NCBI GenBank assembly: GCA_963828815.1
Contig: CAWHGD010000002.1
Location: 158,125-222,124 of the forward strand
Direction of reading: 5' to 3'
DNA: 64,000 bases
Origin: an uncultured Chloroflexia bacterium
Lineage (GTDB): Bacteria > Chloroflexota > Anaerolineae > Anaerolineales > Villigracilaceae
Shown here: positions 3,832 through 27,015 of the stretch, in pieces
How the letters are laid out: each line of letters opens with the position of its first letter
How positions within the stretch are numbered: position 1 is the first letter of the stretch
The notes under the pieces: generated by a model
What the model was told of the DNA's origin: nothing
Seen by the model: only the letters and a program-made list of their open reading frames with translations
Databases searched by the model: none
Position numbers and translations under genes: made by a program

Positions 3832-5066
3832 ATCTCTACATCCGAGTTAGCAGGGAGCGATTTTACACCAGAGGGCACAATCAGTAAAGCATTTGCCCGC
3901 ACGAGGGAAAAGATGTTTCCGGAACCCTGGTGACCGGTCAGGCGGGCGACCAGGTGTCCATCTACCAGGCTTACAATCGCGCGCAGGTAGGATTCGCGCC
4001 CGTCCGATTCGAGTGCTTCTGCCAGGCGTGCCATCTGCGCAGGTCGTGCCCGGGATTCGAGCCCGCTCATTTTATCCAGGGCGGGTTTCACAAAGACCTC
4101 GAAACCGACGAATGCGGACACGGGGTTTCCCGGCAGTCCGATGAAAGGGATGCCGTGAACCCTGCCAAAAGCCAAGGGCTTGCCGGGGCGCATATTAACC
4201 TTCCAGAAGTCGAGTACGCCGTCTTCTTCGATCACCGACCGTACAAAATCAAAGGCACCCACACTGACGCCGGCTGTGGAAACGATCAGATCCACTTTTG
4301 CTTTCACGGCTTTTTCCAGCCTCATGCGCACATCGGCTTCGTCATCCGCGGCGACACCCAGGTGGACCAAGTCAACACCCGCCGATTCAGCCTGGGCTGC
4401 CAGGGTGTAAGAATTGGATTCGTGGATCTTTCCGGGGACCAGCGAGGCATCCACAGGCAGGAGTTCATCACCGCTGGAGAGCAAGCCCAGGCGTGGCTTG
4501 CGGTAAACAGGCACTTCCGCACAGCCCAGCATCGCCAATAGACCGATGTGCTGGGCGCGCAGGCGTGTTCCTGCGGTCAAGACCACATCCCCGGAGTGCA
4601 GATCGTCACCCCTGCGACGGATATTCTCACCCAACCTGACAGGCTTGCGCGCCGTCACCGTCTGCGGTGCGGGAGTGCCAGGGATGCGCACCTGGAAATC
4701 GGTATCCTCCACCATGACCACCGCCCCCGATCCGGGTGGCAGCGCCGCGCCGGTCATGATGCGGGCAGCCTCTCCCGGGCGGAGGGGGATTTCATGGTGA
4801 TCTCCAGCCCGAATGTCAGCGATCACCTTCAGGGTCCGCGGGATGGCAATATCCGCCTCATGAAGCACAAAGCCATCCATCGAGGAATTATCAAAAAGGG
4901 GCAGGTCGGTCCCGGCGGTCACATCGCGAGCCAGGACGCGACCAGAGGCGCGATCAAGTTTTACAACCTGGGAGTCAAGCGGCTGGAAAACCGCCAGGAT
5001 ACGTTCACGTGCTTCGGATACGCTGAGCATGAATAATGTCGCCGTTCCTTCTGAAAGCGGCGACAT
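3816..5066 (-). CDS. moeA: Molybdopterin molybdenumtransferase MoeA
   Basis: 416-aa ORF with typical MoeA architecture and motifs (NSSMDGF, TGAALP, LLSSGDEL, STAGVSVGAFDF, MRPGKPL, GLPGNPVSA). An alternative start at Met13 (MLSVSEARERI) is possible. Confidence 0.85.
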   Translation of the reverse strand: MSPLSEGTATLFMLSVSEARERILAVFQPLDSQVVKLDRASGRVLARDVTAGTDLPLFDNSSMDGFVLHEADIAIPRTLKVIADIRAGDHHEIPLRPGEAARIMTGAALPPGSGAVVMVEDTDFQVRIPGTPAPQTVTARKPVRLGENIRRRGDDLHSGDVVLTAGTRLRAQHIGLLAMLGCAEVPVYRKPRLGLLSSGDELLPVDASLVPGKIHESNSYTLAAQAESAGVDLVHLGVAADDEADVRMRLEKAVKAKVDLIVSTAGVSVGAFDFVRSVIEEDGVLDFWKVNMRPGKPLAFGRVHGIPFIGLPGNPVSAFVGFEVFVKPALDKMSGLESRARPAQMARLAEALESDGRESYLRAIVSLVDGHLVARLTGHQGSGNIFSLVRANALLIVPSGVKSLPANSDVEIWPIE

Positions 5067-5139
5067 TATACCACTGCTCTTTATTGAAATCCGTCGGGAT
5101 TCTATGGTTTGCGGATATTGACCATCTCTTTATTTATAA

Positions 5140-5670
5140 TTATTCATGCATGGGTGGCAGGAATTGTGGCAGGCTTTCAGCCCAGCTGCGAATGGCATTC
5201 CAATCCCGGTGGTCGCCTTCTTTCCAAACCCCGAACAGAACGCTCAAGCGGAATTTCAACCTGTCGCTGGACGAAGGCACCTTGCTGATATCCAGCACTC
5301 CGGCAAATAAACCCTCGCTGACCGGCTTGACCAGGGCTCGCACCGGGGCAAGGAATTCAGCCACGAACGGGCTGTAGGTCTCACCATTTCTCATCGCCAG
5401 CGTCATGCATACCAGGAAAACCATGCAGGGTTTCTGGGCCAGGTCAGCCTGGTGGTCCTTAAGGAATTGCATGGCTTCCGGCAGCCACTGCTTGTTCTGG
5501 ATTGCGCTGCCCGCCACCACCGCCGTGTAGGGTGCCAGGTCATTTACATCCTGCATGCGCAGCACATCCACCCGGGCACCTTTTTCCGTAAGGGTCTTCC
5601 CGATGGCTTCAGCTACGCCGGCGGTGGACCCCGCCCGGCTTGCGTAAGTAACAAGGATCTTATTTTTCAT
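5140..5670 (-). CDS. Flavodoxin-fold protein (HemG/flavodoxin-domain-like)
   Basis: The 334-aa track ORF 5140..6144 is a read-through into the serC remnant. The credible start is ATG 5670 (MKNKILVTYASRAGSTAGVAEAIG..., a flavodoxin-type FMN loop), giving 176 aa. Confidence 0.65.
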   Translation of the reverse strand: MKNKILVTYASRAGSTAGVAEAIGKTLTEKGARVDVLRMQDVNDLAPYTAVVAGSAIQNKQWLPEAMQFLKDHQADLAQKPCMVFLVCMTLAMRNGETYSPFVAEFLAPVRALVKPVSEGLFAGVLDISKVPSSSDRLKFRLSVLFGVWKEGDHRDWNAIRSWAESLPQFLPPMHE

Positions 5671-5693
5671 TAAACCTGCCTTTTCATAAATTT

Positions 5694-6786
5694 TTATCCG
5701 TTCTTCTTCTGGAATTCCTTCATGAACCTGACCAGTTCTTCCGCTGATTCCAGGGTCAGAGCGTTGTACAGCGAGGCGCGCATCCCTCCCACCGAGCGGT
5801 GTCCCTTCAGACCGATCAAGCCTGCTTTCCTGGATTCGCTGGCAAATTGCTCTTCCAGTTTCTCGCTGGGCAGGCGGAAGGTGATGTTCATCACCGAACG
5901 GTCGGAAATGGCATGACCTTTGTAGAAATCCGCCGGATTCATCCATGGTCTTATAGACCAGTCCGGCTTTTGCCTGGTTGCGCCTGGCGATCGTCTCGAG
6001 TCCGCCGAGGTCCTTTGCCCACTTCAGCACCAGCCCGACGATATAGATGGACCAGCATGGAGGCGTATTGAGCAGCGAATTTTCTTCAGCTAATGCCTTG
6101 TAATCCAGCAGGTTGGGCAGGTTCGCCGGGACTCGCTCCAGCATGTCCTCGCGGATGATGACAGATCACCACGCCTGCCGGACCGGCATTCTTCTGTGCG
6201 CCGGCATAGAGCATGGCATACTTGGAAACGTCGATCGGACGGCTGATGAAATCGGAGGAAGCGTCGCAGACCAGCGGGACACCCGGCAGGGATTGAGGCT
6301 CGGTGAAGTATTCCACCCCGTGGATGGTCTCATTGGATGTGAAATGCAGGTAGGCAGCCTTCGGATCCAATTGAAGTTCCGACTGGGCAGGCAGGCGGTT
6401 GAAATTTATCAGCTTCCATGCTGGCTGCCGCTTTTGCGATGCCCAGTTTTTGGGATTCCTTGAAGGCCTTCTTGCTCCAGGTGCCGGTGACGATGTAATC
6501 CGCGGAAGCCCCCGCCGGGCGCAGGTTCATCGGGAGCATGGCAAATTGCAGGCTGGCGCCGCCCTGCAGGAACAGGATCTTGTAAGTTGGCCGGAATGCC
6601 CAGCAGGTCGCGCAGGTCCTTTTCAGCCTCAGCCAGGATGGCTTCGAATTCTTTGGAACGGTGGCTGATCTCCATCACCGACATGCCCGTGCCCTTGTAA
6701 TCGAGCATCTCCGCCTGCGCCTGCTGCAGGACTTCCAGCGGCAGAACGGCTGGGCCGGGATTAAAGTTGTGAATGCGCTTGGTCAT
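5694..6786 (-). pseudogene. serC: Phosphoserine aminotransferase SerC, interrupted by four +1 frameshifts
   Basis: SerC-like sequence is spread over five minus-strand frames:
- [16 protein letters not shown]...LLGIPAN (to about 6595).
- [21 protein letters not shown]...EADKF (to about 6400).
- [31 protein letters not shown]...GPAGVVI (to about 6160).
- IIREDMLERVPANLPNLLDY...TMDESGG (to about 5945).
- FYKGHAISDRSVMNITFRL...KEFQKKNG* (5694).
Frame (high coordinate mod 3) runs 0,2,1,0,2. The start ATG at 6786 is preceded by AGGAG. Confidence 0.8.
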
Positions 6787-12737: not shown

Positions 12738-13436
12738 ATGGAATCCTTGCCAGACCTTACCGACAGCCTCAGGTCCGTCAGGCACTTCCGCAACCTGAGC
12801 CTGCCTGATTTGACCACGATCGTTACCGCGGGGAAAATTCGGCGCATCCCGGCAAATACGACCATTTTCACTGAAGGTGATGCATGCGCCGGGATGTATG
12901 TTTTGCTCAAAGGCCGGGTGCATCTTTTTCAACTGGGTCCTCATGGAAAAGTGAATATCGTGGCGGTCATCGAGCCTGTCATCATGTTCAACGAGGTTGC
13001 CGTCCTCGACGGGGGACCAAACCCGCTTTCAGCCCTTGCGGTTGAGAATTGCCTCGTCTGGCAGATCGACCATCCTGCCTTCCAGTCGCTGATCGAACGC
13101 ATCCCCCAGGTGGGGGTGAGCCTGCTGCGGGTGCTGGCAAAACGCAACCGGGAGATGATCGCCCGCTATGATGACCTCTCGTTCCGTTCAGTATTGGCGC
13201 GCACAGCCAAATTGCTGCTCGACCTGAGCGAAAATGGTCAAAAAGTGATCATCCGGCGCGATTGTTCCATCGAAGAGCTGGCTTCCCGCGTGGTCACCGT
13301 ACCGGAGGCGATCAGCCGGTCGCTGAATTTGCTCAAGAGAGCCGAAGCCATCCGCGTGAGTTGCAGCGAGATCTCTATCCTCTCGGCAGAAGGATTGGCT
13401 GAATTTGTCCATATCGGGTCACTGGATCACGGTTGA
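12738..13436 (+). CDS. Crp/Fnr-family transcriptional regulator (copy 1)
   Basis: 232-aa ORF with a cNMP-binding-type beta-roll (FTEGDACAGMYVLLKGRVHLF, PVIMFNEVAVLDGGPNP) plus a C-terminal HTH (ELASRVVTVPEAISRSLNLLK). No FNR-type N-terminal Cys cluster. It is a paralogue of 20981..21736. Confidence 0.85.
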   Translation: MESLPDLTDSLRSVRHFRNLSLPDLTTIVTAGKIRRIPANTTIFTEGDACAGMYVLLKGRVHLFQLGPHGKVNIVAVIEPVIMFNEVAVLDGGPNPLSALAVENCLVWQIDHPAFQSLIERIPQVGVSLLRVLAKRNREMIARYDDLSFRSVLARTAKLLLDLSENGQKVIIRRDCSIEELASRVVTVPEAISRSLNLLKRAEAIRVSCSEISILSAEGLAEFVHIGSLDHG

Positions 13437-13462: not shown

Positions 13463-14140
13463 TCATTTGCTTTCCGCGACGCGCCCCAATCCATCCTTAT
13501 CCGTCAGAACGAATTCCGTCCGGGTGACATCAATCAGTTTCCGGTCTGCAAAGCGATAGATAACCCGGCAAACCATCTCCCGGGTCGTGCCCACCCGGGC
13601 AGCCATCTCATCCAGGGTCAGGTGACGCGTGATGGCTGCCTCCCCGGCGTTCTCAAAATCATCCAGCAGCAGCCGCGCCAATCTACGGGAGATCGGCTGG
13701 AAAGCCAGTTCCTCAACGATGGCGCTGGCGCGCTGCATCCGCTGGATCATCAAGCGGCATAATTCCCAGGACATGCGCCCATGCGCGATGAAAACCGGTT
13801 CGATGATCTCACGCGACCATAAATAAACCCGCGCCGGGGTATGCGCCTCCAGGGTTGCCAGCAGCGGTGCCTGATCCTGGAAGAAAGCCAGCCCCCAGAA
13901 CAATTCGCCGGCACCGAATGTGGTAACCAGCAGGTTGCGCCCTTCCCCGGAGACCTTGACAGCATCCAGCTCCCCCTCGGCAACCAGGAACAAGTACGGC
14001 CAGACATCCCCCTGCATCACCAATGCTTCGCCTTTTTTCAAATCTTTCCTGGTCGCCTGTTTCGCCAGCAGATTACGTCCTTCTTCTTCCAGCGAGGCAA
14101 AAACAGGGTGAGTGCTCAGCAATTTATTCAACTCTTCCAT
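13463..14140 (-). CDS. Crp/Fnr-family transcriptional regulator (copy 2, divergent type)
   Basis: 225-aa ORF with a cNMP-binding fold (MQGDVWPYLFLVAEGELD) plus HTH (EMAARVGTTREMVCRVIYRF). It converges on 12738..13436 with a gap of only 26 bp. Confidence 0.85.
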   Translation of the reverse strand: MEELNKLLSTHPVFASLEEEGRNLLAKQATRKDLKKGEALVMQGDVWPYLFLVAEGELDAVKVSGEGRNLLVTTFGAGELFWGLAFFQDQAPLLATLEAHTPARVYLWSREIIEPVFIAHGRMSWELCRLMIQRMQRASAIVEELAFQPISRRLARLLLDDFENAGEAAITRHLTLDEMAARVGTTREMVCRVIYRFADRKLIDVTRTEFVLTDKDGLGRVAESK

Positions 14141-14311: not shown

Positions 14312-14743
14312 ATGAACACATTGAGGACAACAATCCTGATCATGCTAACCGGGGGTGCTGTGCTCTTCATTTCAGCGTGCGGAGCCCGGGAACCGGCCTG
14401 CCAGTGGGCAACAGGAACGCCCAGGTATATGACCGCCCTTCCACCGGGCTCGTCAACCGCTGAGTCGACAACCCTGTCCCCGGCGCCCGTCAAATTGGAG
14501 ATCGGAGGCAGGGAAATTCTTGTGGACCAAATCGTCGAGGGTCCTCTATGCAATGGCGCCTGGAGCGGGATCGTGTATGTCAGCTGCAATGTCCAGGTCT
14601 TCCCCTGGGAAGAACAACCCACTTTCCTGAAGGACTGTAACCTGTCCATCGAACCGGGTACGATCGTTTATGTGGCCTACCATAATGACACCGCCTATTA
14701 CAACGGGTGCTCGTGTCATACCGGAGAAATCCCTGAACCTTGA
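14312..14743 (+). CDS. Cys-rich lipoprotein of unknown function
   Basis: 143-aa ORF with signal peptide plus lipobox (VLFISAC) and six further Cys, including a C-terminal GCSCH. No SD is present. Confidence 0.6.
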   Translation: MNTLRTTILIMLTGGAVLFISACGAREPACQWATGTPRYMTALPPGSSTAESTTLSPAPVKLEIGGREILVDQIVEGPLCNGAWSGIVYVSCNVQVFPWEEQPTFLKDCNLSIEPGTIVYVAYHNDTAYYNGCSCHTGEIPEP

Positions 14744-14774: not shown

Positions 14775-15551
14775 ATGAAGAATAAGAATATCCTCGGAGG
14801 CATCCTGGCTGTGGTCGCCAGCCTGATGGGTATCATCGGGCATATGTTCCTATTTATGAAGTGGTACGTGGTAGGGATGCACACCCCCTCCGCAGAACCG
14901 GGATGTGAGATCCTGCTGAATTACATCCACCCGCTCATGGCCGATTTTGGGATCCTTGCCGGGATTCTGTTTGCGGTCAGCGCGTATGGATTCTTTTCAA
15001 AAAAGAACTGGGCTTTCTTTCTCACGGTCCTCGCGCTGGTGCTGGCCCTGCTGGGCAGCTGGTTCATCAACGTGCCCTACATGGCAGCGGGTTTGCCCCC
15101 CGTATATTTCATCCTCTTCTGGCCGTACGTGCTGCTTTATTTCCTGTTCCTGAAGGTGGTGGGGAGGATTTCCTGGAAAATCACCCTACTGGCACTGCTA
15201 ACCGGGATCGCTTACATTTTCTGCTGGATGAACGGCGTCGCCAGCACCAGCCGGATCATCACTATTGGAGATCCGATCTTCGTCCTCGTGCAGCGCCTGC
15301 ACTGGGTGGCGATGCTCGGCTGGGCCGTGGTCACGGTCGGGTTGATCATCAAGCCAAAGAATTGGCTGAGGGTGCTCGAACTCGTCGCCGGCTTGACCGA
15401 ACTCGTGGTTGGCATCCCTCTCGCGGCTGTGACAGCCCAACAGCTGGGAAGGTTCTCGCTCTTCGCCCTCGGTCCGATCATGTGCCTGGTCCTGGTCGTG
15501 CTCTTCTTGTGGCCAAATCTCTGGCAGCGGCTCACTGGAGCCTCCGATTAG
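14775..15551 (+). CDS. Polytopic membrane protein of unknown function
   Basis: 258-aa ORF, preceded by AAGGAG, with about 8 hydrophobic helices. I recognise no family. Confidence 0.6.
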   Translation: MKNKNILGGILAVVASLMGIIGHMFLFMKWYVVGMHTPSAEPGCEILLNYIHPLMADFGILAGILFAVSAYGFFSKKNWAFFLTVLALVLALLGSWFINVPYMAAGLPPVYFILFWPYVLLYFLFLKVVGRISWKITLLALLTGIAYIFCWMNGVASTSRIITIGDPIFVLVQRLHWVAMLGWAVVTVGLIIKPKNWLRVLELVAGLTELVVGIPLAAVTAQQLGRFSLFALGPIMCLVLVVLFLWPNLWQRLTGASD

Positions 15552-15667: not shown

Positions 15668-17692
15668 TCAAAGATATTCCTGCTTTTCTCTCTCACGTTC
15701 CGGCCATGCCGCCACCAGGAAACCGAAGATGAACATCAGGCTGCCTATCCATAACCAGTTGATCAAGGGATTATGATATACCTTGATAGGCGCTTGCGAT
15801 GGCGAGATGTTCTCCCAGTTAATCAGTACAACATATAAATCATCTGTCAGGGTGGAGCGCACCCCGGGTATCGTCATCGACTGACCGCTCGCTGTGTAAT
15901 AGTCACGACGTGGATAGAGTTTGCCCAGAAACTGTTCTCCTCGGAAAACGCTGAGGGCAGCTCGTGAAACAAAACGCCCTTCCGTGGAAGGGAACTGTGC
16001 CAGCGAGTCAAACCGGAGGCTATACCCGGCAATTTGAATATCTTCACCCACTGCAAGTGTCTTTTGAGTGGTGGTTTGGTACACTTCAATACCCAGGATG
16101 CCAATTGCCATGACCACCATGCTGAAATGGATAAAATAGCCACCATAACGGCGACGATTATGCCTGACCAGTTGCCAGAGGGCGACCAGGAAATTCTCCT
16201 TTTCCTTTTTTTGTCGGGAAAGTACCCCGCGCAAGAACTCAAACAGCGTTACGAAGATCACAAACCCCACCAGAGTAAAACCAACCAGCGCAATCCAGTT
16301 GTGAATCCCTAAGACGGCTAACACCACCAATAAAATGATTGAAAGGATGGCTGGTTTCCACAGGGTATGTCCCAGTGTCTGGTATGTGGATCTACCCCAA
16401 GCTGAAAGCGGAGCGATACCCATTAATGCCATCAATGCACCGAACAAAGGTCCATTGGCACGCAGGTAGAACGGCGGTCCGACGGTCATTTTCTGGTTGG
16501 TTACAAGCTCCGAGATCAAGGGGAAGATCACTCCCCAGAAGCAGACAATCAAAACACCCATAAAGAGTAGATTATTGAGCAGGAATAGCGCCTCGCGCGA
16601 AAACAAGGAGTGCATCTCGACTTCAGCACGCAGGTCTTTCCAGCGATATATTAACAAGGCAAGCGATGTGACAAAGGTGATTCCGATAAAGGCAAAGAAC
16701 ATCGGACCAATGGGGCTTTGCGCGAAAGCGTGAACCGAAGAAAACACGCCGGAGCGGGTCAGGAAGGTGCCGAAGATGACCAGGGCATAGGTCAAGATGA
16801 TGAGCAGCATGTTCCATTGTTTGAACATACCGCGTTTTTCCTGGATCATGACCGAGTGCAGGAAAGCCGTCCCGGTCAGCCAGGGCATCAGGGAGGCAGT
16901 TTCAACCGGGTCCCAGGCCCAGTAACCACCCCAACCCAGCACATCATATGCCCAGCGCATTCCAAGTACCAAGCCGAGAGACAGGAATAACCAGGCAACC
17001 AATGTCCAACGACGGGTGAGACGAATCCAGCGGTCATCTGATCGTCCGGTGACCAGAGCAGCGATGGCAAAGGCAAATGGTACGACAAAAGCGACAAAGC
17101 CCAGGTACAGCATGGGCGGGTGGATGATCATGCCTGGATGGCGTAGAAGGGGATTCAGACCCTGTCCCTCCACAGGTGTGACAGCAATTGCTCCTGCAGG
17201 AGCAAACATGCGCGGCACGAAATCGCCTGCAGCAGTCTGCCACCAGCGCGCAAATGGATTTTCGAAGAGAATTGTCAGGGACAGAAAAAAAGCAAGCGTA
17301 ATCGATATCACCCCGATGACCCAGGGCAAGAGTTCGCGGTCGCGTTCCCACTTGCGCAAGGTCACAGCCGAGGCAAAGGCTGCCATGAGCCACGACCAAA
17401 GAACTAGCGATCCGGCCTGCCCGCCCCACAGGGCAGTGAGCTTGAGATAGAAAGGCATGTCGTTACTTGTCACCGAGTAGACATATTCGATTTCATAATG
17501 TCCTGTGACGAGAAGATAGGCCAACGCAAAAACCGCAAGCGAGATAAGTGGAAAAGATACTTGCATGGAACGCCGGGCAGTTTCCACCCAGCGGTCAGAT
17601 TTTTTATAGTATCCCAATACCGCCGCTACCACGCTGAAAAGTAACAGCAGGAATGTCAGCACAAATACACCAAAGCCAAATTGAGCAAGCAT
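15668..17692 (-). CDS. ccmF: CcmF/NrfE-family cytochrome c haem lyase
   Basis: 674-aa polytopic ORF with LWGGQAGSLVLWSWL near the N-terminus and the Trp-rich haem-handling motif GWGGYWAWDPVE. SD AGGAG is present. No ccmABCDE, ccmH or ccmG is adjacent. Confidence 0.85.
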   Translation of the reverse strand: MLAQFGFGVFVLTFLLLLFSVVAAVLGYYKKSDRWVETARRSMQVSFPLISLAVFALAYLLVTGHYEIEYVYSVTSNDMPFYLKLTALWGGQAGSLVLWSWLMAAFASAVTLRKWERDRELLPWVIGVISITLAFFLSLTILFENPFARWWQTAAGDFVPRMFAPAGAIAVTPVEGQGLNPLLRHPGMIIHPPMLYLGFVAFVVPFAFAIAALVTGRSDDRWIRLTRRWTLVAWLFLSLGLVLGMRWAYDVLGWGGYWAWDPVETASLMPWLTGTAFLHSVMIQEKRGMFKQWNMLLIILTYALVIFGTFLTRSGVFSSVHAFAQSPIGPMFFAFIGITFVTSLALLIYRWKDLRAEVEMHSLFSREALFLLNNLLFMGVLIVCFWGVIFPLISELVTNQKMTVGPPFYLRANGPLFGALMALMGIAPLSAWGRSTYQTLGHTLWKPAILSIILLVVLAVLGIHNWIALVGFTLVGFVIFVTLFEFLRGVLSRQKKEKENFLVALWQLVRHNRRRYGGYFIHFSMVVMAIGILGIEVYQTTTQKTLAVGEDIQIAGYSLRFDSLAQFPSTEGRFVSRAALSVFRGEQFLGKLYPRRDYYTASGQSMTIPGVRSTLTDDLYVVLINWENISPSQAPIKVYHNPLINWLWIGSLMFIFGFLVAAWPEREREKQEYL

Positions 17693-18005: not shown

Positions 18006-18039
18006 AAAACAATCCCCAATGCCTATGCACTGGGGATTG
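18006..18039 (-). terminator. Rho-independent terminator of the cytochrome operon (CAATCCCCA-loop-TGGGGATTG + TTTT on the minus strand)
   Basis: A 9-bp stem at 18010..18018 / 18031..18039 is followed on the minus strand by TTTTGG (18009..18004). It lies 18 nt after the stop of 18057..18749. Confidence 0.7.
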
Positions 18040-18056
18040 TAGAATAACATATATAT

Positions 18057-18749
18057 TTAGAGAGTCGGAACCTCTACTTTGACGATTTTCTGATCCTGTG
18101 TCAACCAGAGCCCCCTTGCGAGCAAGGCTATCCCACCAAGAATCAAGATCGTACCGAAGATATAGATCGGCAAAGCAAGTACGTCCACCCAATTACTTCC
18201 CATATAAATGTGCGAGGCGCCAACCCACATCGGCGTTGATAGGATGACAGCACCAGACACCATGGCTGCCAGCCCGCCACCGGTTTTTTTATCAGCACCT
18301 TTGCCGCCCTTGGTAAAATCTACTTTTGCCCGCAGACCGGGGATGAGAAGCAGCAGGAAAACGATCAGTGTGAGGACATTGATATAGAACACTACATTGG
18401 CAGGCGCAGCTTTACCGATCACCGAAAGGGATGTAAAGTAATGGATCGCGTTCAGTACCGTACCGATCCCCAGGACAATTATGGCATTTCGATATGCATG
18501 TTTACCGCCACGTATCAATCCGACCGTGACGGCAATGCCTGCAATCCCGATAGCGATCGTTGTAAAGACAAAGGTTTGATAAAGCCACCGGTAATCTACT
18601 GGCTTTATCAATATCCAATACGGAGGGTAATTCTTTGTAAAGAAGGCTGCACATGACGTGCCGGCACCGCCTAGAACATTCATGGCTGCGGTCATTGCCA
18701 TGACAACAATGGCGAATACTCGGATAATTTTTCCTGAAGTGTTTTTCAT
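18057..18749 (-). CDS. Polytopic membrane protein, unassigned family (copy A; paralogue of 26332..27015)
   Basis: 230-aa ORF and last gene of the cytochrome operon. Shared blocks with copy B:
- LGGAGTSC in TM1.
- (Y/F)xWLY...IAIG.
- GxKxAYR.
- NAIHYFTS versus GAIHMAFS.
- VLTLI(V/I)FLL..IPGL...VDF followed by a Lys/Gly-rich loop. Confidence 0.65.
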   Translation of the reverse strand: MKNTSGKIIRVFAIVVMAMTAAMNVLGGAGTSCAAFFTKNYPPYWILIKPVDYRWLYQTFVFTTIAIGIAGIAVTVGLIRGGKHAYRNAIIVLGIGTVLNAIHYFTSLSVIGKAAPANVVFYINVLTLIVFLLLLIPGLRAKVDFTKGGKGADKKTGGGLAAMVSGAVILSTPMWVGASHIYMGSNWVDVLALPIYIFGTILILGGIALLARGLWLTQDQKIVKVEVPTL

Positions 18750-18803: not shown

Positions 18804-19694
18804 TTACGGCACTTCCTCTGATAAATTCCAAGGATTATTTGCAAAGTGACAACGTTCACATAACGCCTGCTTGACGATATTATGACTTGCATATGGAATC
18901 GAGGATTCAGGCAAAACTGTAACCCAATTTCCTTGCTCATCAGGGCCGACTGCCAGCCCCGCCGCGTCATGGCAAGCCCAGCAAGTCACTGCTTCGTGAT
19001 TCTTTTCATGACCTGGGATGGGAGCCGGTGGATTTAAGGCATTCGCATGGCATACTTCTGATGCACATGTAGCAGTGGTAGTATGGGCATCGTGACATTG
19101 TGTGCAGGTATACCCGGCATGTGCATTCGCAAGATCCGGCGTTTCATGACCCGCAATGTCAATCTGGCCGTGGCATTTCAGACACAGGTCGGTTGTAGAA
19201 GCGACATTCTCGTATTCATCGATCGGTGGGATCGATAACCAGGCGTACTCCGGTTGGACCTCGCCTTTTTTCAGCCGATGGCAAACGTTGCATGGTACAT
19301 TATCCCAATCGGCTTCTGCTATCGTTGGGGGCGGAGGGGCAATCTCGAATTTACAGACTGCACAACTCGCTGGCATGTCGTCCATCGAGGGGACATAGTT
19401 GATTGGCGCGTGACAGCGCGCGCACGTGCTGTTTATACCCAACACATCCAATACATAAGTATGTGCATGGGGGCTTGCCTCCCACAGGGATTGGATTTGA
19501 GAGGGGGCAATTTCTGTTGGAATACCGGTAGGTTGGGGAGCCCCGGTGGGGCTCCCCTCGTTTGATGGAACTGATGGAACCTGTGGCGACACCTGTCCCT
19601 GCGGGGGAGTCTCCTTCTCCGGTTGACAGGCGGTCAACCCTGCAACCAGGAATGCTGTTGCAATCAGACTGAGGAATAGGGTTCTACTCTGCAA
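18804..19694 (-). CDS. Multihaem c-type cytochrome lipoprotein (8 candidate haem sites, including CxxCK and CX4CH)
   Basis: 296-aa ORF with a TTG start after AAGGTG. It has a signal peptide plus lipobox (VAGLTAC) and a Pro/Ser/Gln linker. The sites, in order, are CARCH, CAVCK, CNVCH, CLKCH, CTQCH, CASEVCH, CWACH and CERCH. Confidence 0.8.
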   Translation of the reverse strand: MQSRTLFLSLIATAFLVAGLTACQPEKETPPQGQVSPQVPSVPSNEGSPTGAPQPTGIPTEIAPSQIQSLWEASPHAHTYVLDVLGINSTCARCHAPINYVPSMDDMPASCAVCKFEIAPPPPTIAEADWDNVPCNVCHRLKKGEVQPEYAWLSIPPIDEYENVASTTDLCLKCHGQIDIAGHETPDLANAHAGYTCTQCHDAHTTTATCASEVCHANALNPPAPIPGHEKNHEAVTCWACHDAAGLAVGPDEQGNWVTVLPESSIPYASHNIVKQALCERCHFANNPWNLSEEVP

Positions 19695-19721
19695 GATACA
19701 CCTTTCGAAAAAGATCTAGGG

Positions 19722-20747
19722 TTAGGGGGTCGCGGTTGGGGTTGGGACAGGCGCTCCTGCCGCCGTCAGGACGGACAGCCCGTATGTATTACCTTCTTTG
19801 TGGCAGCGGTTGCAGGAAACCATATACACAATGCTGTGCGATACGATCTCCGCTGTTGTGGAGGGTCCACCTCCGCGTCCGGGGGTGGTCAGGATGGTGG
19901 TAAAGAGACCACCCTCTACCGCCCGTCCTACAGCTGCACCGGAGGCATCGTGACAGCCCAAGCAGGTGACACCGGCCATCATGGGTGCGACCTTTGTGTG
20001 CGTATCAGCTGTATCCGTGTGACAATCCACGCACTGCTTGACCTCACCGGAGTGTGGCTCGTGGCAGTCGGTGCAGTACTTCGGGCGCTCGGCTTGCGGC
20101 CATTCACCAGCATAATTCATGTGTGCACTGCCGCCCAGGGTAACCGTGTGATTCGCTGACAATCCAGGACTACCTACCTTGGTGCCTGCCGGGTTCGCGT
20201 GGCATTTCTCACACAGTTCATTCGGGGTATTGAGCGGTTCGTACACCATGCTTATTGGAACGAGCCAGGCGATCTCTGCGCTGGCGGTCCCGTTCTCATC
20301 AACCTCATGACACTGTGCGCAAGGGATTCCCACCCACTGCTCTTCAGTAACCAAGTCCATCCCACCTTCTGCGAACGAAGGGGCAATTCGCAATTCTGGA
20401 TCGGTTGCAAATTTACAAGTAACGCAGTTTGGAGGGGCACTGGTCTTGGAACCCGGTATCCAGTTCTGCGGCGAATGGCAGCGGGTACACATGGTATTTG
20501 GGCCTTTACCAAGGTCATACGCTGCGCTATGCGGACCGATTCCCCAGGCTTCTATGAGTGCTGATTGATCCGGAATGGGTACCGGTGTTGCCGTAGGGGG
20601 GACGGGAGTGGGCATTGGAGTTGGCTCTGGCGTAGCGGCCGGCGCGCAGGCATATAGCAGCATTGTAAGTAATACGAATGCTCCAACTACGCTGAACCAG
20701 AGTTTTTTGGGTGGACCGGTTTTATGATTTGATTTATTCATGTGCAT
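19722..20747 (-). CDS. Multihaem c-type cytochrome lipoprotein (8 candidate haem sites, including CxxCK)
   Basis: 341-aa ORF with a signal peptide plus lipobox (LLYAC) and a Pro/Thr linker. The sites, in order, are CTRCH, CVTCK, CAQCH, CEKCH, CTDCH, CVDCH, CLGCH and CNRCH, collinear with 18804..19694. SD AAGGAGA favours the second ATG (20741). Confidence 0.8.
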   Translation of the reverse strand: MHMNKSNHKTGPPKKLWFSVVGAFVLLTMLLYACAPAATPEPTPMPTPVPPTATPVPIPDQSALIEAWGIGPHSAAYDLGKGPNTMCTRCHSPQNWIPGSKTSAPPNCVTCKFATDPELRIAPSFAEGGMDLVTEEQWVGIPCAQCHEVDENGTASAEIAWLVPISMVYEPLNTPNELCEKCHANPAGTKVGSPGLSANHTVTLGGSAHMNYAGEWPQAERPKYCTDCHEPHSGEVKQCVDCHTDTADTHTKVAPMMAGVTCLGCHDASGAAVGRAVEGGLFTTILTTPGRGGGPSTTAEIVSHSIVYMVSCNRCHKEGNTYGLSVLTAAGAPVPTPTATP

Positions 20748-20980: not shown

Positions 20981-21736
20981 ATGGAAACACCTGAAACATT
21001 AGCAGAAAGACTTGGACATGTCAGCCACTTCTTGAAACTACCCATGGCGGACAGATTGGCCATCATCCTTGCCGGTCAAATGCGACTTTTCTCGCCCGAT
21101 TCAGTAATAATCACTGAAGGAGAGCCTTGTGCCGGTATGTTCGTATTATTACGAGGGCATGTGCACATCTGTAAACTTGGTTTAAAAGGGCAGCAAAGCA
21201 TTATTGCAGACATAGATCCAGTCATCATGTTCAACGAGGTGGCATTATTGGATGGAGGACCTAATCCATACACAGCCATTGCAACTCAAAATTCCCTTGC
21301 CTGGCAAATCAGTTACGAGGCTTACCAAAAACTGCTCCATCGATATGCCCAAGACCAATACATGGAAGTATCACTTGGCCTTCTGGGGATTATGGCAAGC
21401 CGCTATAGACAACTGTTAGAAAATTACGCCGATCTTTCTTTTCTAACTGTGCCGAATCGCGTTGCCAAATTGATTTATGAATTGAGTGCCCAAGGCCAAG
21501 TACCCATAAACCGTCATGAAAACTCGATCAACGAGATGGCTGCACACATAGCCTCTGTTCCTGAAGCGATCAGCCGGTCGCTGAACATCTTAAAATGTCA
21601 AGGAATTATTACGACATCACGGACAACTATCACCGTCCTGGAACCATTAGAGCTGGCCAGACTGGCGAAAACTGAGCTGAATAATTTATTTGTATACGGC
21701 CGTAAGAAATCAAGTATTCCAGTCTTGGAAGATTGA
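20981..21736 (+). CDS. Crp/Fnr-family transcriptional regulator (copy 3; paralogue of 12738..13436)
   Basis: 251-aa ORF with ITEGEPCAGMFVLLRGHVHIC and PVIMFNEVALLDGGPNP, plus HTH EMAAHIASVPEAISRSLNILK. It is visibly AT-richer than its neighbours (three hand-counted 60-nt lines gave 38-50% GC, versus about 60% for a line in copy 1). Confidence 0.85.
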   Translation: METPETLAERLGHVSHFLKLPMADRLAIILAGQMRLFSPDSVIITEGEPCAGMFVLLRGHVHICKLGLKGQQSIIADIDPVIMFNEVALLDGGPNPYTAIATQNSLAWQISYEAYQKLLHRYAQDQYMEVSLGLLGIMASRYRQLLENYADLSFLTVPNRVAKLIYELSAQGQVPINRHENSINEMAAHIASVPEAISRSLNILKCQGIITTSRTTITVLEPLELARLAKTELNNLFVYGRKKSSIPVLED

Positions 21737-21870: not shown

Positions 21871-23339
21871 ATGGCCAAACGTTTAAGTTTTCTCTTTCGC
21901 TCCACCAAAGGCCTGATCCTGGTGGCGATCGCCATGATCGGACTGGAGACCGCCATCTTCGGGATGCTCTCCGGCCCAATGGCTGAGTTGGGTGTGCGCG
22001 ACTTCATCATCCGCATTCCTGAAGATGGACCTTGTCCAGGCTGAGCGCGAAGGACGCATCATCATCCTGTACCACTCCATCGCCATGGCCGTGGTGGCCA
22101 TCGAAACCTACATGATCACCAGCCTGCTGAAGATGAAAGAATTCTACAAGATGGCGGTACGGGTGCTCATCACTGTTGGCTATATCCTGACCATGATCTT
22201 CGGCATGGGCTTCGCCTATTGGGGTCATAACTGGGCGCTGCATGGACTCTACATTACCGGGTTGAGTCTGATCTTCTTTGCCGGTGTCCTGCTGGTCATT
22301 GCCCTCTGGCCGTGGAACAAGGAATACTACCAGCCGGATAAAGACCTATTCCCGCACCAAAAAAGGCGTGGATATGGAGCGCGTGGCCTTCTTCGCTGCC
22401 GCTCTCACCACGGTCATTTCTGCATTATTCGGTGCTGTCCCCGGTTCGTACTTTGGCAATGGCTTTGAAACCTTCCTGGCCGAGAACATTATCCGGCCAC
22501 CCGAAAAGACCATCATGGAATACTCTGTCATCGGTCACCTGCACATCATGCTGGCGCTGATCGCCATCATGATCACCCTCATCGTCGGACGCTGGCTGAA
22601 CTTCAAGGGCATCCTGCACAAGATCGCCATGCCGTTGATGATCCTGGGTACTATCGTTCTCAACCTGGGCGTCTGGGGGGTGGTCACACCTCTCGAACCG
22701 ATCGCCCACATGATCATCTATGTCGGCGCAACACCATCCATGCTGGCGGCCTTGATGCTGGTCATTTTCACCTGGGACAAGCTCATCCGCGATGGTATTG
22801 CCGGCATCCAAAAACCGAACGGTTGGCAGAAGTTCAAGGCACTGCTTCGTGATCCACTCCGTTTCGGCCCCATGTGGCAGATGGTCTTCATGAACTTCAC
22901 CACCAGCTTTCTCGGAATTTTCATGGCTGTGCGCCTGGATGAGATCTTCCGTGTCTGGCCTGCTCACGAAGAACGCATCGAACTGACCGGCCACTGGCAC
23001 GTTCTTTCAGCCATCATCGCCACCATCATCCTGCTCTATTACGGCGATATGATCGGACTGAAGGGAAAACTCCGCCAGGTCTATGGCTGGTCCATCATCA
23101 TTCTATCCGATCTCGCCTTCGGCTCCGTCACCATCTTCGAAATGAAACGGTTGTTCATCACAGAAGCCACCCAGCAGCCATTGGTCAACACCCTCATGCT
23201 GTTGATGGACATTGGTCTTGGTCTGTTGCTGGTCGTCCTGGCGATGGTAATGATCTGGCGCTTGCTCGACCTGTTCAGGAAGAAAGGACGCTGGACGGAA
23301 GAAGTGGATCACGAACTCTCGGAGGAGGTGAGCAAATGA
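21871..23339 (+). pseudogene. His-rich polytopic membrane protein of unassigned family, split by two +1 frameshifts
   Basis: There are three collinear segments:
- 21871..22044: MAKRLSFLFRSTKGLILVAIAMIGLE...
- The 21992..22468 frame: ...KMDLVQAEREGRIIILYHSIAM...YWGHNWALHG...
- The 22278..23339 frame: ...MERVAFFAAALTT...IGHLHIML...TGHWHVLSA...
Start coordinate mod 3 runs 1,2,0, with shifts near 22000-22040 and 22340-22365. About 12 or more helices carry paired His. Confidence 0.6.
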
Positions 23340-24240
23340 AGCGCACATTTCTGTCCATCATCCTGCTTTCTGCTGTATTGGTCTCCTGCGCCTCCGTGGA
23401 CCTGAATGCCCCCGTCCCCACCTTCGACACTGGCGTGGACCCGGACTCCTGGGCTCTCATCCCGGCTGGACCCTTCCTTGACGGGTCAACATGATGACCC
23501 GGCTTCTATTGACTACGATTACCAGATGATGGTCACCGATGTGACCGTCGCGCAGTACGTGGATTTCCTGAACATTGCCCTGGCTGATGGCACGCTCAAA
23601 ATCGACAGTGAACAGATAGTCGGTTTCTACCCCGGTGATCAATTCCACGCTGTCAAGCATGAAATTGAGATTGCTGCCGCGGAATACATCTTTGTCCCTT
23701 TGAACGATCCGGCTTCGCGTTTCACCTTTGACGGCTCCACATTCTCGGTCATCCCCGGCTACGAGAACCACCCGATGACCAATGTCTCCTGGTTCGGCGC
23801 CTGGGGCTACTGCGGGTACTACGGCTTCAGCCTGCCGACCGAACTCGAATGGGAAAAAGCTGCCCGCGGATCGGCAGACAATCGTCCCTTCCCCTGGGGT
23901 GACGAGATTGCCCAAAACAACGCCAATTTCTACACCAGCCGCGATCCTTTTGAAGAAATGAGCTCCTTCGGTTCGCGCACCACTCCGGTCGGCTTCTATA
24001 ACGGGAATACTTATGACGGTTATGTTACGCTCAACTCTGCCAGCCCATACGGCCTGTACGACATGGCCGGGAATGTCTGGCAGTGGACCGGGGATGTATA
24101 CGAGGGTCAGCACTACCGCTATCATGCGCGGCGGCTCAAAGGATACCTATGACATGGATCTGCGTATCTGGGTGCGCAACAACGCCACGCCAACCTATTA
24201 CAGTCCTGGTGTGGGTTTCAGATGTGCCAGAAATCCGTGA
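23336..24240 (+). pseudogene. FGE-sulfatase (SUMF1/DUF323) domain lipoprotein, split by two +1 frameshifts
   Basis: The ATG at 23336 overlaps the upstream stop (ATGA). MKRTFLSIILLSAVLVSC is a lipobox. Then come IPAGPFL | TGQHDD...MMVTDVTVAQYVDFL...NVSWFGAWGYC...LPTELEWEKAARG...GNVWQWTGDVYEGQHYR | MRGGS...GVGFRCARNP*. Frames run 2,0,1, with shifts near 23480 and 24125. Confidence 0.7.
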
Positions 24241-24290
24241 TCAAAGTAGTCTTGGATGTGGTGCCTTGAATATAATGGTATAAATACCAT

Positions 24291-25189
24291 TTGATCCTCA
24301 TAGAGAAAAGTCTGGAGAACTCCGTGGCTGAAATGATCGCAAAATTCCGTCTCTATTGGTCCCTTACTAAATCTCTACAGACAGGCCTGCTGCTCGCCAC
24401 CGGCCTGGCGGGGTACATGACTGCCCGCTGCCCGGTGATGCACTGGTACGATTTTCTTGGACTGGCCGTGAGCCTGTTCCTGGCGATCGCAGGCAGCACG
24501 ATCATCAATATGTGGTATGACCGCGATATCGATGCTGTCATGAACCGCACTCATCACCGACCGATGGCGGATGGACGCGTTGCCCCTGCCGAAGCCCTGC
24601 GGCTGGGACTGGTTTTTTCGGTGCTGGGTGTCGGGATGGCAATCGCCATGTCCCCCCTCTACGGATTGATCGTTTTTGCCGGGCTGTTCTTTGACGTGGT
24701 GATTTACACGCTGTGGCTCAAGCGGCGAACCTGCTGGAGCATCATCTGGGGAGGGATCGCAGGGGGCATGCCCATCCTGGCCGGGCGCGCCTTTGGCACC
24801 GGTTCCATTGACGGCATCGGCATCCTGCTTGACCCTGGCAGTATTGTTCTGGATCCCCACCCACATCCTGACCTTTTCCATGCGCTACTTCGACGATTAT
24901 CAGGCTGGCAAAGATACCAACCTTCCCATCCACCTATGGTTTTCACGCCACTCGCCTCACGATCGCAATCTCGAGTGTCCTCGCGGCTGCCTGCATCGCA
25001 ACGGCCGGCGTCCTGATCGGAATCGAATGGGGCTTCCTTCGGCTTCTGGCTGTGCTCTCTAGCGGATTGCTTATCCTGGCGGTAGCCAGTATCTTCCGAC
25101 CCTCCGAACGCGTCAACTTCGGGCTGTTCAAATACGCTTCCATGTACATGCTGGGAGCCATGCTCCTGATTTCGTTGAGCGTGTTGTGA
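24291..25189 (+). pseudogene. ctaB: Protohaem IX farnesyltransferase (haem O synthase, CtaB/CyoE-like UbiA prenyltransferase), split by two +1 frameshifts
   Basis: NMWYDRDIDAVMNRTHHRPMADGRV and WGGIAGGMPILAG are CtaB-like. The protein continues in the next frame (LAVLFWIPTHILTFSMRYFDDYQAGK) and then a third frame (IPTFPSTYGFHATRLTIAI...LLISLSVL*, stop at 25187..25189). Frames run 0,1,2, with shifts near 24830 and 24912. The likely start is ATG 24333. Confidence 0.7.
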
Positions 25190-25791
25190 AAATAACCGTC
25201 ATCAACCGACTCATTCTCCTGGTAATGTGCCATGTTGCCGGATACCAGATCATTACCGGCGTTGAGGGATTGGCAACCCTCCCAATGATTGCCTACACCA
25301 TCGGCTTCGGTATCCTGCTCGTTGCCGGATTGCTGATCATCATCCTCGGTTATGATGCGCTGGATAGCCCGGTCGTGGTTATTCTTTCGACGGTCATCCC
25401 GCTCAGCCTATCGCTGGGGCTGGTCTGGGAGCACTTGACCGTATACCGGACACTCTATCTGGTTTTCGTCATCCTCGGGTTCCTGGCAATTGTCATCACC
25501 CGCTCCTTTCCAATGAAGAATAAGCTGCCGGTCATCGTACTGGCATGTGTTCACGGTATCGCCGGGATGACAATCTTCCTGCTTCCCTTCTTCCTGGTTT
25601 TCACCGGCAGTGTTGCCCCCGGTTTCGTCTTGGTTGGCCTGGGCGGAGCGCTGATTGGCCTGGGGGGGTTGTTACTTTCCTTCCTGAAAACCGGTAAACC
25701 CATCCTATCTCGAATTACGATCTTGAAGATCCTGCCAGGGTTGCTTTTAGTTACAACTGCCGCCTTTGTGCTCGGTTTTTCTGCAGCTTGA
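25186..25791 (+). CDS. Polytopic membrane protein of unknown function
   Basis: 201-aa ORF with a GTG start overlapping the ctaB stop (GTGA), about 6 helices and Gly-rich C-terminal helices. Confidence 0.5.
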   Translation: MKITVINRLILLVMCHVAGYQIITGVEGLATLPMIAYTIGFGILLVAGLLIIILGYDALDSPVVVILSTVIPLSLSLGLVWEHLTVYRTLYLVFVILGFLAIVITRSFPMKNKLPVIVLACVHGIAGMTIFLLPFFLVFTGSVAPGFVLVGLGGALIGLGGLLLSFLKTGKPILSRITILKILPGLLLVTTAAFVLGFSAA

Positions 25792-25815: not shown

Positions 25816-26262
25816 GTGGAACAAACATCGAAATGGAACCCTGCAACAAAGAAAATCTGGCTGCATCTCACTGCCGGAATCATTTGGTCGGGTGTGGGTA
25901 TCATGCTGGTCGCGTTTGCCACCGGTTGGCTGGGTACGGTCCATTCATGGATAGTCGTTCTACTGATTTTGGCTGGCTCGCTTCTGGCTACCGGGATTTA
26001 TTTCTTTGGCTTTTCAAAACTGGCCTTCAGCAACATCCTACGCATCAACAATATTCCCAGGGAAAGGGTTTGCATATTCGCCTTCCAGAAATGGACTAGC
26101 TACCCCCTGGTCCTGGTGATGATCGCCATGGGGATCTACCTGCGCCGGTTCTCCCCCATCCCCAAGCCTTACCTGGCGATCCTGTACCTCGGGCTGGGCG
26201 CAAGCTTGTTTGTTTCCAGCCTCCAGTACTATTCTCAAGTAGTACGCGCCAACCGTACATGA
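25816..26262 (+). CDS. Small membrane protein of unknown function
   Basis: 148-aa ORF with about 4 helices. No family recognised. Confidence 0.5.
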   Translation: MEQTSKWNPATKKIWLHLTAGIIWSGVGIMLVAFATGWLGTVHSWIVVLLILAGSLLATGIYFFGFSKLAFSNILRINNIPRERVCIFAFQKWTSYPLVLVMIAMGIYLRRFSPIPKPYLAILYLGLGASLFVSSLQYYSQVVRANRT

Positions 26263-26280: not shown

Positions 26281-27015
26281 TTGCTACTTCGGTTGGACAA
26301 TTTATTCCCGATATTCGATAAGGAGAAGATTATGTCAAGAAATAAGTGGTGGGCCAGGCTTTTGCGTATTGTCGGGATCGTCTTCATGAGTCTGACTGCG
26401 CTCTTTACCTTGCTGGGCGGCGCGGGCACATCCTGCGTGGCCCTCAACCCGACCGGCTTCGGTGCTACGTTTGCTCCGATCGCCAAATTCCAGTGGCTGT
26501 ACATCCTGTTTGTACTCGTCACAGTTGCCATTGGGGTCATGGGAGTCCGGGCAGTTGTCTTGCTGGTTAAGGGCAGGAAGAACGCCTATCGTTACTCACT
26601 GATCGCGCTGCTGGCAGGTGTTGTGGTTGGTGCCATCCACATGGCATTCTCGCGCACTTTGCGTGGTGGATCCTCCATGCCCGTGGATATGGTCGTATAC
26701 ACCACCGTGCTGACCCTGATCATCTTCCTGCTTTTCCGCATCCCCGGTCTCTGGCAGGGTGTTGACTTTGCCAGGCCCGAGGGCGAAAAGAAGACAGGCA
26801 AACAGGCTGCTGCCATCGCCCTGGGCGCTACCGGCCTGCTATCTCTCACCATTCAGTTCCTGATGGCCCCCACCCACACGATCAACGGTATCAATTACGC
26901 GGATGTCTGGCATACAGCGCTGACATTCCTCGGTCTTGCATTGATCCTGGGTGCTGTGGCGACGGCGGTCATTACTGAATTCTCACTGTTACGGCGCAAG
27001 TCGCTGGCCGAATAA
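26281..27015 (+). CDS. Polytopic membrane protein, unassigned family (copy B; paralogue of 18057..18749)
   Basis: The track ORF starts at TTG 26281. ATG 26332 (MSRNKWW...), preceded by AAGGAG, is the likely start (227 aa). It shares LGGAGTSC, WLY, KNAYR, GAIHMAFS and VLTLIIFLLFRIPGL..VDF blocks with copy A. Confidence 0.65.
   Translation: MLLRLDNLFPIFDKEKIMSRNKWWARLLRIVGIVFMSLTALFTLLGGAGTSCVALNPTGFGATFAPIAKFQWLYILFVLVTVAIGVMGVRAVVLLVKGRKNAYRYSLIALLAGVVVGAIHMAFSRTLRGGSSMPVDMVVYTTVLTLIIFLLFRIPGLWQGVDFARPEGEKKTGKQAAAIALGATGLLSLTIQFLMAPTHTINGINYADVWHTALTFLGLALILGAVATAVITEFSLLRRKSLAE

Follow-up and report, generated by a model that had tools for sequence, protein, structure and literature searches.

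A 64-kb stretch of DNA from an uncultured Chloroflexia bacterium (hereafter, the window) encodes two tandem octahaem c-type lipoproteins, MHC-A and MHC-B (A and B below), in which the second haem motif reads CxxCK instead of CxxCH. The two proteins are multihaem cytochromes c with a predicted lysine haem from a previously unstudied Anaerolineae family, and they lie beside an equally unstudied oxidase-like protein. We know of no Lys-ligated c-type haems outside nitrite-ammonifying enzymes, and in genome surveys CxxCK is used as a sequence marker of nitrite ammonification. Here the motif defines a large, Anaerolineae-wide family whose architecture and partners differ from those of the nitrite-ammonifying enzymes. 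The reading we favour, to which we give an even chance, is that A and B form a lipid-anchored octahaem pair, regulated by a Crp/Fnr-type protein and with an open Lys haem at position 2, which links the membrane to a terminal enzyme.

The Cytochrome Pair and Its CxxCK Site

The motif series of MHC-A is CTRCH, CVTCK, CAQCH, CEKCH, CTDCH, CVDCH, CLGCH, CNRCH, and that of MHC-B is CARCH, CAVCK, CNVCH, CLKCH, CTQCH, CASEVCH, CWACH, CERCH. The window contains no other c-type cytochrome genes. A and B, at 30% identity (E = 4e-30), are paralogues whose eight sites are all collinear in the pairwise alignment. In both proteins CxxCK is followed by Phe and lies 16 (A) or 15 (B) residues past the His of site 1. 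As judged from the sequence, each signal peptide ends at a lipobox Cys (LLYA-C34 in A, GLTA-C23 in B), and C34 is invariant among 49 aligned A sequences. A Pro/Thr-rich linker of ~40 residues follows the lipobox Cys in both, and A additionally has a Pro/Thr tail. The haem domain comprises ~270 residues, that is, ~33 residues per haem. A preliminary description of this DNA had already proposed tandem paralogues with a lipid anchor, a Pro/Thr linker and a CxxCK-F second site 15–16 residues past the first CxxCH; on re-check, both open reading frames (ORFs), their coordinates and their motif lists matched exactly, and these features were all recovered.

The search of a protein collection with A returned 223 homologues. 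In all of the best 120 that cover the region, site 2 is CxxCK, at identities down to 45%. A broader set was obtained by scanning one genome per species, which gave 80 loci, and by adding three contigs, which brought the number to 83. Nearly all of these loci belong to metagenome-assembled genomes (MAGs) of Anaerolineae (Anaerolineales, Thermoflexus, Ardenticatenales, Aggregatilineaceae), and they contain 155 distinct ORFs of the family that have seven or more motifs. CxxCK is found at site 2 in 152 of the 155, in both paralogues and at identities down to ~30%. The Lys is followed by Phe in 141 of the CxxCK-bearing ORFs, and the spacing from site 1 to site 2 is constant (20–21 residues). Likewise, the 49 aligned A sequences show no variation at the eight haem sites, K112 or F113. 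Judging by these alignments, the lysine at site 2 is no accident. The preliminary description had named retention of the lysine by orthologues as a check, and the outcome is decisive in its favour.

Variants of the motifs also argue for a true haem site in which Lys replaces His. Ten distant paralogues carry CxxCK at both site 1 and site 2 (e.g., CARCK and CGSCK), whereas all other members have CxRCH at site 1; these ten thus show that K and H exchange where the motif is otherwise canonical. In the shorter copy, site 6 indeed has the CX4CH spacing reported in the preliminary description; this spacing is conserved in B orthologues, and in two loci (L012, L036) the same column alternates with CX2CH. 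Clusters of Anaerolineae type, at ~46–52% identity, were also noticed on MAGs labelled as a Methanosarcinales archaeon, Nitrosomonadaceae and Zixiibacteriota (L034, L068, L069). These odd taxon labels probably reflect binning contamination, not transfer.

Predicted Coordination of Haem 2

The eight haem sites are accompanied by only six conserved non-motif His in the A family (H73, H200, H209, H232, H250, H304) and by seven in the B family (H76, H183, H192, H204, H229, H233, H271). H73 of A is replaced by Met in at least two homologues (P0029, P0055), and the A and B alignments contain no invariant Met. A rare third paralogue (L003, L011) has seven haem sites: WSQAG stands in place of CxxCK, the seven other motifs are kept, and so are all seven conserved non-motif His. 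Because all seven His persist when site 2 is lost, haem 2 would be the one that has no distal His. It is most likely Lys-ligated with no His as a distal ligand, and such a combination would make it high-spin and open to ligands. Haem occupancy of the CxxCK site and ligation by its Lys are what we infer from the sequences.

The Lys-ligated haem of OTR is also haem 2. The open active-site haem is haem 2 in c554, MccA and OcwA, and in OcwA the open haems occupy positions 2 and 5, with only slow background turnover of ~1 per min (PMC6703420). On this point the preliminary description needs amending: a special haem at position 2 has precedents.

Relation to Known Multihaem Cytochromes

Pfam matches of the family are of the generic multihaem kind only: Cytochrome_C7, c3_2, paired CXXCH, class III, MtrC domain II/IV and c554. 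The MtrC/MtrF domain II/IV model matches 32 of the 49 aligned A members; c554 (PF13435) gives weak matches in 20 of the 49 at E ≤ 0.01 (best E 3.9e-7), and the class III and c3_2 matches are at or close to threshold. Neither A, B nor the 49 aligned homologues match the NrfA models (Pfam Cytochrom_C552, NCBIfam nrfA). Pfam and NCBIfam scans of A and B likewise gave no membership in the HAO/ONR, NapC/NirT or NNT families, and on the MtrA/DmsE model TIGR03508 A and B reach 22.8 and 16.3 bits, respectively, against a cut-off of 192.2.

PDB sequences were searched with A alone and then with the profile of 49 A sequences. The best match of the profile is the surface undecahaem cytochrome OmhA (6qvm, E = 1.7e-5). 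Nine-haem cytochromes follow at E 1.7e-3 to 0.04 (1ofw, E = 0.0017), and the ONR chains at E = 0.14–0.19, over one stretch of paired CxxCH only. The best NrfA, that of G. lovleyi (6v0a), has a non-significant E of 0.036, in a weak collinear alignment that sets CxxCK and the next two CxxCH against NrfA haems 1–3. As family assignments the PDB matches were rejected, for they reflect generic CxxCH spacing only. A Foldseek search of the AlphaFold2 (AF2) model of A against the PDB found no match (best E = 3.8); apo AF2 models of haem-packed proteins are uninformative for fold comparison. The preliminary description had placed the arrangement outside the characterized families, and this stands: membership in the NrfA, HAO or NNT families is lacking, as is any significant PDB fold match. 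Its link to NrfA and ONR, on the other hand, is supported by the motif alone. Literature searches on CxxCK multihaem proteins in Chloroflexi and Anaerolineae yielded no account of the family or the cluster.

A and B share with NrfA and ONR/TvNiR the CxxCK motif with a presumed Lys proximal ligand, the predicted lack of a distal His at that haem and an anaerobic regulatory setting. However, CxxCK marks haem 1 of 5 in NrfA and haem 4 of 8 in ONR, as compared to haem 2 of 8 in A and B. Furthermore, A and B are lipoproteins in a paralogous pair, are about half the size of these enzymes (the ONR/HAO polypeptide has ~520 aa), and do not have the helical domain. Genes for nrfH, nrfBCD and NapC/NirT are absent from the window and from related loci.

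The closest functional parallel appears to be the open haem 2 of c554, OTR, MccA and OcwA, a likeness of function and not a demonstrated homology. In these proteins, too, the special haem comes second, and the three conserved distal His for haems 1–4 recall a c554-type tetrahaem unit. Nevertheless, haem 2 of c554, MccA and OcwA has a His proximal ligand, the Lys of OTR comes from elsewhere in the chain, outside the binding motif, and none of the four occurs as paired lipoproteins that have a conserved partner in the membrane. Cytochrome c3 of Desulfovibrio and the nine-haem cytochrome share the CX4CH spacing seen at site 6 of B. The c3 matches cover the C-terminal tetrahaem half only, and c3 proteins are soluble all-bis-His shuttles with no Lys haem.

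Operon and Regulation

A and B form a three-gene operon with mem237, a small membrane protein gene, since a terminator-like hairpin (fold of −24.3 kcal/mol, z = −4.8) lies directly after this third gene. The A-B-mem237 triad recurs in ~58 loci. mem237 has no match in Pfam or NCBIfam, and among the His and Cys residues of its family only H180 and C33 are conserved. With this single conserved His, a role of mem237 as a dihaem cytochrome b quinol oxidase was considered and rejected. In one subclade (L089, at 4842–5705; L043, L053, L055, L063, L065), genes for a NapH-like membrane polyferredoxin (Pfam Fer4_5) and for a His-rich membrane protein with four helices recur near the cluster. Their products may supply the connection to the quinone pool that is otherwise missing.

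The whole window contains three TTGA-N6-TCAA boxes, all within this cluster. Among the related loci, 42 of 65 have such a box ahead of MHC-A, usually near −90 to −120, vs. ~3 expected; the background density is 0.088 per kb. Boxes also precede the oxidase-fold gene described below in 15 of 42 loci. A Crp/Fnr gene adjoins the cluster in at least 29 loci. The one divergent from MHC-A in the window has, on reading of its sequence, an E--SR recognition helix and no N-terminal (FNR-type) Cys cluster. It is one of three Crp/Fnr genes within 9 kb around the cytochrome operon; two or three are also present in L003 and L089.

The Oxidase-Fold Module and Other Partners

The most frequent neighbours of the triad are the genes for a His-rich 12-helix membrane protein (mem485), an FGE-sulfatase-domain lipoprotein and a haem o synthase. 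They adjoin it in ~41–44 loci and, by a table count, in ~15 of the 21 loci with full 10-kb flanks; the FGE gene adjoins mem485 in ~41 loci. The identity of the haem o synthase is given by the intact L001 orthologue, which exceeds, with 211.8 bits, the TIGR01473 cut-off of 210.3.

mem485 was analysed through an intact homologue of ~490 aa (L001:12085-13542, P0121), which has more than 3,000 database matches, the best 120 of them at 77–86% identity. Scans of 120 close and 10 distant (23–45% identical) homologues revealed no Pfam domain, the family has no NCBIfam match either, and two family profiles matched no PDB sequence. A sequence link to COX1/NorB, sought with Pfam, NCBIfam and PDB profiles, is thus absent, and the connection is by fold only. 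The AF2 model (pTM 0.82) shows a 12-helix subunit I fold. Its top Foldseek match is the T. thermophilus ba3 oxidase (4g70_A) with a TM-score of 0.64 and a probability of 1.00, at a weak E of 4.6e-3. The TM-scores with aa3 oxidases and cNOR range from 0.45 to 0.61 (0.50 for cNOR 4xyd), and all matches other than haem-copper oxidases stay at or below 0.27. On the model, then, mem485 is a protein of the haem-copper oxidase subunit I fold. In relatives down to 23% identity the invariant residues are H67 in transmembrane helix (TM) 2, H123, H220 and H222 in TM6, H277 in TM8, H372 and H374 in TM10 (an HxH), and E202. When compared with the canonical His set of haem-copper oxidases, the TM2 His and the TM10 HxH are present, but the TM7 HH pair is absent.

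The haem o synthase gene always adjoins the mem485 family. A mem485 relative of 33% identity (L085, L086) has the UbiA gene directly after it and no cytochromes nearby, which indicates that mem485 and the haem o synthase make up a module of their own. Most Anaerolineae place this module beside the CxxCK pair. A literature search for novel haem-copper families in Anaerolineae yielded no account of the mem485 family or the cluster.

The arrangement resembles NorC/NorB and the cytochrome-c-dependent oxidases, with c-type cytochromes beside a 12-helix protein of subunit I fold and Fnr/Dnr-type control. Similarly to cNOR, mem485 has three invariant His beyond the presumed haem ligands and an invariant Glu. 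It differs from NorB and COX1 in that no sequence similarity is detectable, electrons would come from a pair of octahaem lipoproteins and not from a subunit with one or two haems, and the module includes a dedicated haem o synthase together with the FGE-like lipoprotein.

In the window, the genes for mem485, the FGE lipoprotein and the haem o synthase contain about six frame switches over 3.3 kb (21871–25177), whereas the three operon genes (A, B and mem237) and those that flank the cluster are uninterrupted. Intact orthologues (P0215) are 92–98% identical to the frameshifted pieces, and the mem485 copy is collinear with them apart from two switches. The frameshifts are therefore either assembly indels or a very recent inactivation.

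A different partner is found in distant relatives. CxxCK pairs with 33–39% identity to A lie inside DmsA/DmsB/DmsC-like/DmsD clusters. In L072–L083 (e.g., L077:4707-16123), these clusters also hold a polyferredoxin and a radical SAM protein, and one of the cytochromes has two CxxCK sites. A 620–680-aa anchored S-layer-like protein with a CxxCH or CX3CH site is encoded 3' of the pair. Since distant pairs sit in Dms clusters, the cytochrome pair seems to be a portable redox module that serves different terminal enzymes.

Maturation of the CxxCK Site

In organisms with System I, the attachment of haem to CxxCK usually requires a dedicated lyase, although S. oneidensis employs the general CcmF together with CcmI for this purpose (PMC12285233). 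A gene of the CcmF/NrfE family lies beside the cytochrome operon in the window, set apart by the terminator and 364 bp as a separate transcription unit. It scores 437.7 bits on TIGR00353 (cut-off 569) and 340 on PRK10369 (cut-off 394), and with 392.3 against 927.3 on the NrfE model TIGR03145 it fails the equivalog test. No other ccm or nrf maturation genes (ccmB, ccmC, nrfF, nrfG) were found in the 64-kb window.

The synteny of ccmF and operon is kept in both examined loci of the window's lineage (L004 and the contig of P0020). Across the 83 loci, CcmF adjoins the cluster in only four. In L041, L064 and L066, ccmF stands beside ccmB and ccmC within a full ccm operon less than 10 kb from the cluster, and ccmB and/or ccmC also occur near the cluster in L020, L030, L037, L044 and L048. 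The idea that this CcmF is a general, dedicated CxxCK lyase was rejected on these grounds: four loci of 83, a separate transcription unit and full ccm operons elsewhere. The situation resembles NrfE of E. coli, a CxxCK-specific CcmF paralogue, in that a lone CcmF/NrfE-family gene stands next to the window's sole genes for CxxCK cytochromes. It is unlike NrfE in that the gene scores far below the cut-off, nrfF and nrfG are lacking, and most loci do not have it; in another subclade the ccmF near the cluster is part of a full ccm operon. CcmF may help to mature the CxxCK site in the window's lineage, but it does not define the system.

Proposed Role of the Pair and Alternative Explanations

According to the reading we favour, the A-B-mem237 operon would be turned on by a Crp/Fnr-type regulator via the TTGA-N6-TCAA boxes. 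A and B would be lipid-anchored by their Pro/Thr linkers at the outer face of the membrane and would carry eight covalent haems each, seven of them ordinary CxxCH/CX4CH haems, mostly bis-His, and haem 2 on CxxCK with Lys as the proximal ligand. Together they could form a wire of 16 haems plus a reaction site that connects the membrane and the terminal enzyme. This enzyme would be the oxidase-fold protein with its haem o synthase in the window's and most other lineages, and a DmsABC-type molybdoenzyme in distant relatives. In the manner of haem 2 of c554, OTR, MccA and OcwA, the open Lys haem most likely serves to bind a small ligand, for example nitric oxide (NO), nitrite, hydroxylamine or O2. 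This haem might also be catalytic. The direction of electron flow, a physical complex of A, B and their partner, and the substrate are likewise inferred.

Several observations weigh against this reading. About one-third of the loci with full flanks have no oxidase-fold gene within 10 kb, and in the window itself the three partner genes are frameshifted, so A and B may work without them here. mem237 has no bis-His pair, which leaves the route to the quinone pool unexplained. CcmF is adjacent only in the window's lineage, though CxxCK usually requires a dedicated lyase. Two to four Lys haems per complex would be odd for one catalytic site. The quality of the AF2 model obtained for A is mediocre (pLDDT 73, pTM 0.58), and all 83 loci come from MAGs or metagenomes.

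The notion that A and/or B are miniature NrfA- or ONR-like enzymes seems rather unlikely to us. Their Lys haem would reduce nitrite, hydroxylamine, NO or sulfite with electrons supplied by the other seven haems, and the oxidase-fold module would have an unrelated function. This notion does draw on the fact that the characterized CxxCK haems, those of NrfA and ONR, are all catalytic (PMC12285233, PMC8840924). The invariant Lys with no distal His fits it, and so do the regulator family and the box type, as used in anaerobic and N-oxide respiration, the weak collinear alignment with NrfA, the loci where the triad is found without the oxidase-fold gene, and the frameshifts just mentioned. Yet that alignment is not significant, no NrfA, HAO or ONR family match exists, and the haem domain, with ~33 residues per haem, has no helical bundle of the kind that forms the NrfA pocket. 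The Tyr/His/Arg catalytic set could not be located, some paralogues have two CxxCK sites, and recruitment to DmsABC clusters suits an electron-transfer module better. Taken together, the FNR boxes, the third gene, the oxidase-fold partner and DmsABC point to a larger respiratory module rather than to a stand-alone nitrite reductase.

We regard as less probable still, and unlikely, a conduit at the cell surface. OcwA of Thermincola is such a conduit, serving extracellular substrates. By analogy, the linkers of A and B would span a monoderm-type Chloroflexota envelope, extracellular Fe(III), humics or electrodes would be reduced or oxidized, and the open haem would be the site of contact or of flavin binding. 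The lipobox with its ~40-residue linkers and the Pro/Thr tail of A would suit this, as would the S-layer-like protein after the pair in distant loci and the open haems of OcwA at positions 2 and 5 (PMC6703420). The OmhA and MtrC/MtrF matches could be cited too, but they reflect generic CxxCH spacing only; moreover, the close genomic association with an oxidase-fold protein integral to the membrane, and with its haem o synthase, points inward, and an invariant Lys ligand is not a trait of any known extracellular conduit. Least probable of all, and improbable in our opinion, is that CxxCK binds no haem, its Cys pair being a disulfide or metal site and the proteins being seven-haem shuttles of the c3/c7 type. 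The special maturation factors that attachment normally demands are not encoded near most loci; the example of S. oneidensis with its general CcmF and CcmI means, however, that a dedicated lyase is not obligatory (PMC12285233). The seven-haem paralogue, which keeps all else without the site, may also be quoted in favour of this view. On the other hand, in that paralogue C, C and K are lost as one unit, the Lys and the next Phe match the Cys pair in conservation, paralogues have either CxxCH or CxxCK at site 1, and the site falls within a collinear series at the regular spacing of haem motifs.

The favoured reading of a cytochrome pair linking the membrane to a terminal enzyme can be carried further, tentatively, to a scenario that we find doubtful at present. 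The CxxCK pair, the oxidase-fold protein, the haem o synthase and the FGE lipoprotein would constitute an unrecognized terminal oxidoreductase of Anaerolineae under Fnr/Dnr control. It would be a new branch of the haem-copper oxidoreductases, invisible to sequence models, in which Lys-haem cytochromes take the place of subunit II or NorC as electron donors and NO or O2 is reduced, with the Lys haems perhaps delivering or pre-processing an N-oxide.

The class Anaerolineae abounds in sediments, soils and wastewater sludge, and if mem485 and the haem o synthase do act in this way, they represent a hidden terminal enzyme in its respiration, with a bearing on NO/N2O or low-oxygen metabolism. If the CxxCK site binds haem, a wider chemistry should be attributed to CxxCK haems, and caution is needed before a CxxCK protein in a metagenome is called 'NrfA-like'.

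Features of the Locus

The features of the cluster are collected in Table 1. The genes for two further Crp/Fnr regulators, a Cys-rich lipoprotein and a polytopic membrane protein lie beyond ccmF, and three small polytopic membrane protein genes follow the haem o synthase.

Table 1. Features in and around the cytochrome operon (positions in the window).
Feature	Position	Strand	Remarks
Crp/Fnr regulator	12738-13436	+	cluster gene common to L001 and L003
Crp/Fnr regulator	13463-14140	-	cluster gene common to L001 and L003
Cys-rich lipoprotein	14312-14743	+	143 aa; cluster gene common to L001 and L003
Polytopic membrane protein	14775-15551	+	258 aa; 73% identity to L001 orthologue; cluster gene common to L001 and L003
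CcmF/NrfE-family haem lyase subunit	15668..17692	-	674 aa; Pfam CcmF_C, Cytochrom_C_asm
Intrinsic-terminator-like hairpin	18009..18040	-	directly 3' of third gene; 14-bp perfect stem, then UUUUGG
mem237, third operon gene	18057..18749	-	230 aa; polytopic membrane protein, ~6 TM
MHC-B	18804..19694	-	octahaem c lipoprotein paralogous to A; 296 aa, TTG start; ORF and motif scan
CASEVCH (CX4CH), site 6 of MHC-B	19047-19067	-	
CAVCK, site 2 of MHC-B	19350-19364	-	
MHC-A	19722..20747	-	octahaem c lipoprotein; 341 aa, ATG start; ORF and motif scan
CVTCK, site 2 of MHC-A	20412-20426	-	
FNR/CRP-type box TTGACAACTGTCAA	20837-20850		divergent promoter region; the two boxes lie ~90-125 bp upstream of MHC-A start
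FNR/CRP-type box TTGATTATTGTCAA	20859-20872		divergent promoter region, as above
Crp/Fnr-family regulator	20981..21736	+	divergent from MHC-A; Pfam cNMP_binding, HTH_Crp_2
Third FNR/CRP-type box TTGACATAAATCAA	21763..21776		upstream of oxidase-fold gene
mem485 homologue	21871..23333	+	His-rich 12-helix membrane protein; three frames, switches near 22017/22019 and 22340/22344
FGE-sulfatase-domain lipoprotein homologue	23336..24237	+	over three frames
Haem o synthase (CtaB/CyoE) homologue	24333..25177	+	Pfam UbiA; over two or three frames
w201	25186-25791	+	small polytopic membrane protein; goes with oxidase-fold module
mem166 homologue	25816-26262	+	small polytopic membrane protein; goes with oxidase-fold module
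Paralogue of third operon gene	26281-27015	+	small polytopic membrane protein; goes with oxidase-fold module

The 143-aa lipoprotein, conserved in only 4–5 loci, has a Cys-rich C-terminal region that ends in ...NGCSCHTGE, which could be a site of the CxCH type. Farther away, at 36604–39009, two ORFs, one of 436 aa on the minus strand and one of 330 aa on the plus strand, look like transposases from their translations, with an N-terminal helix-turn-helix-like region.

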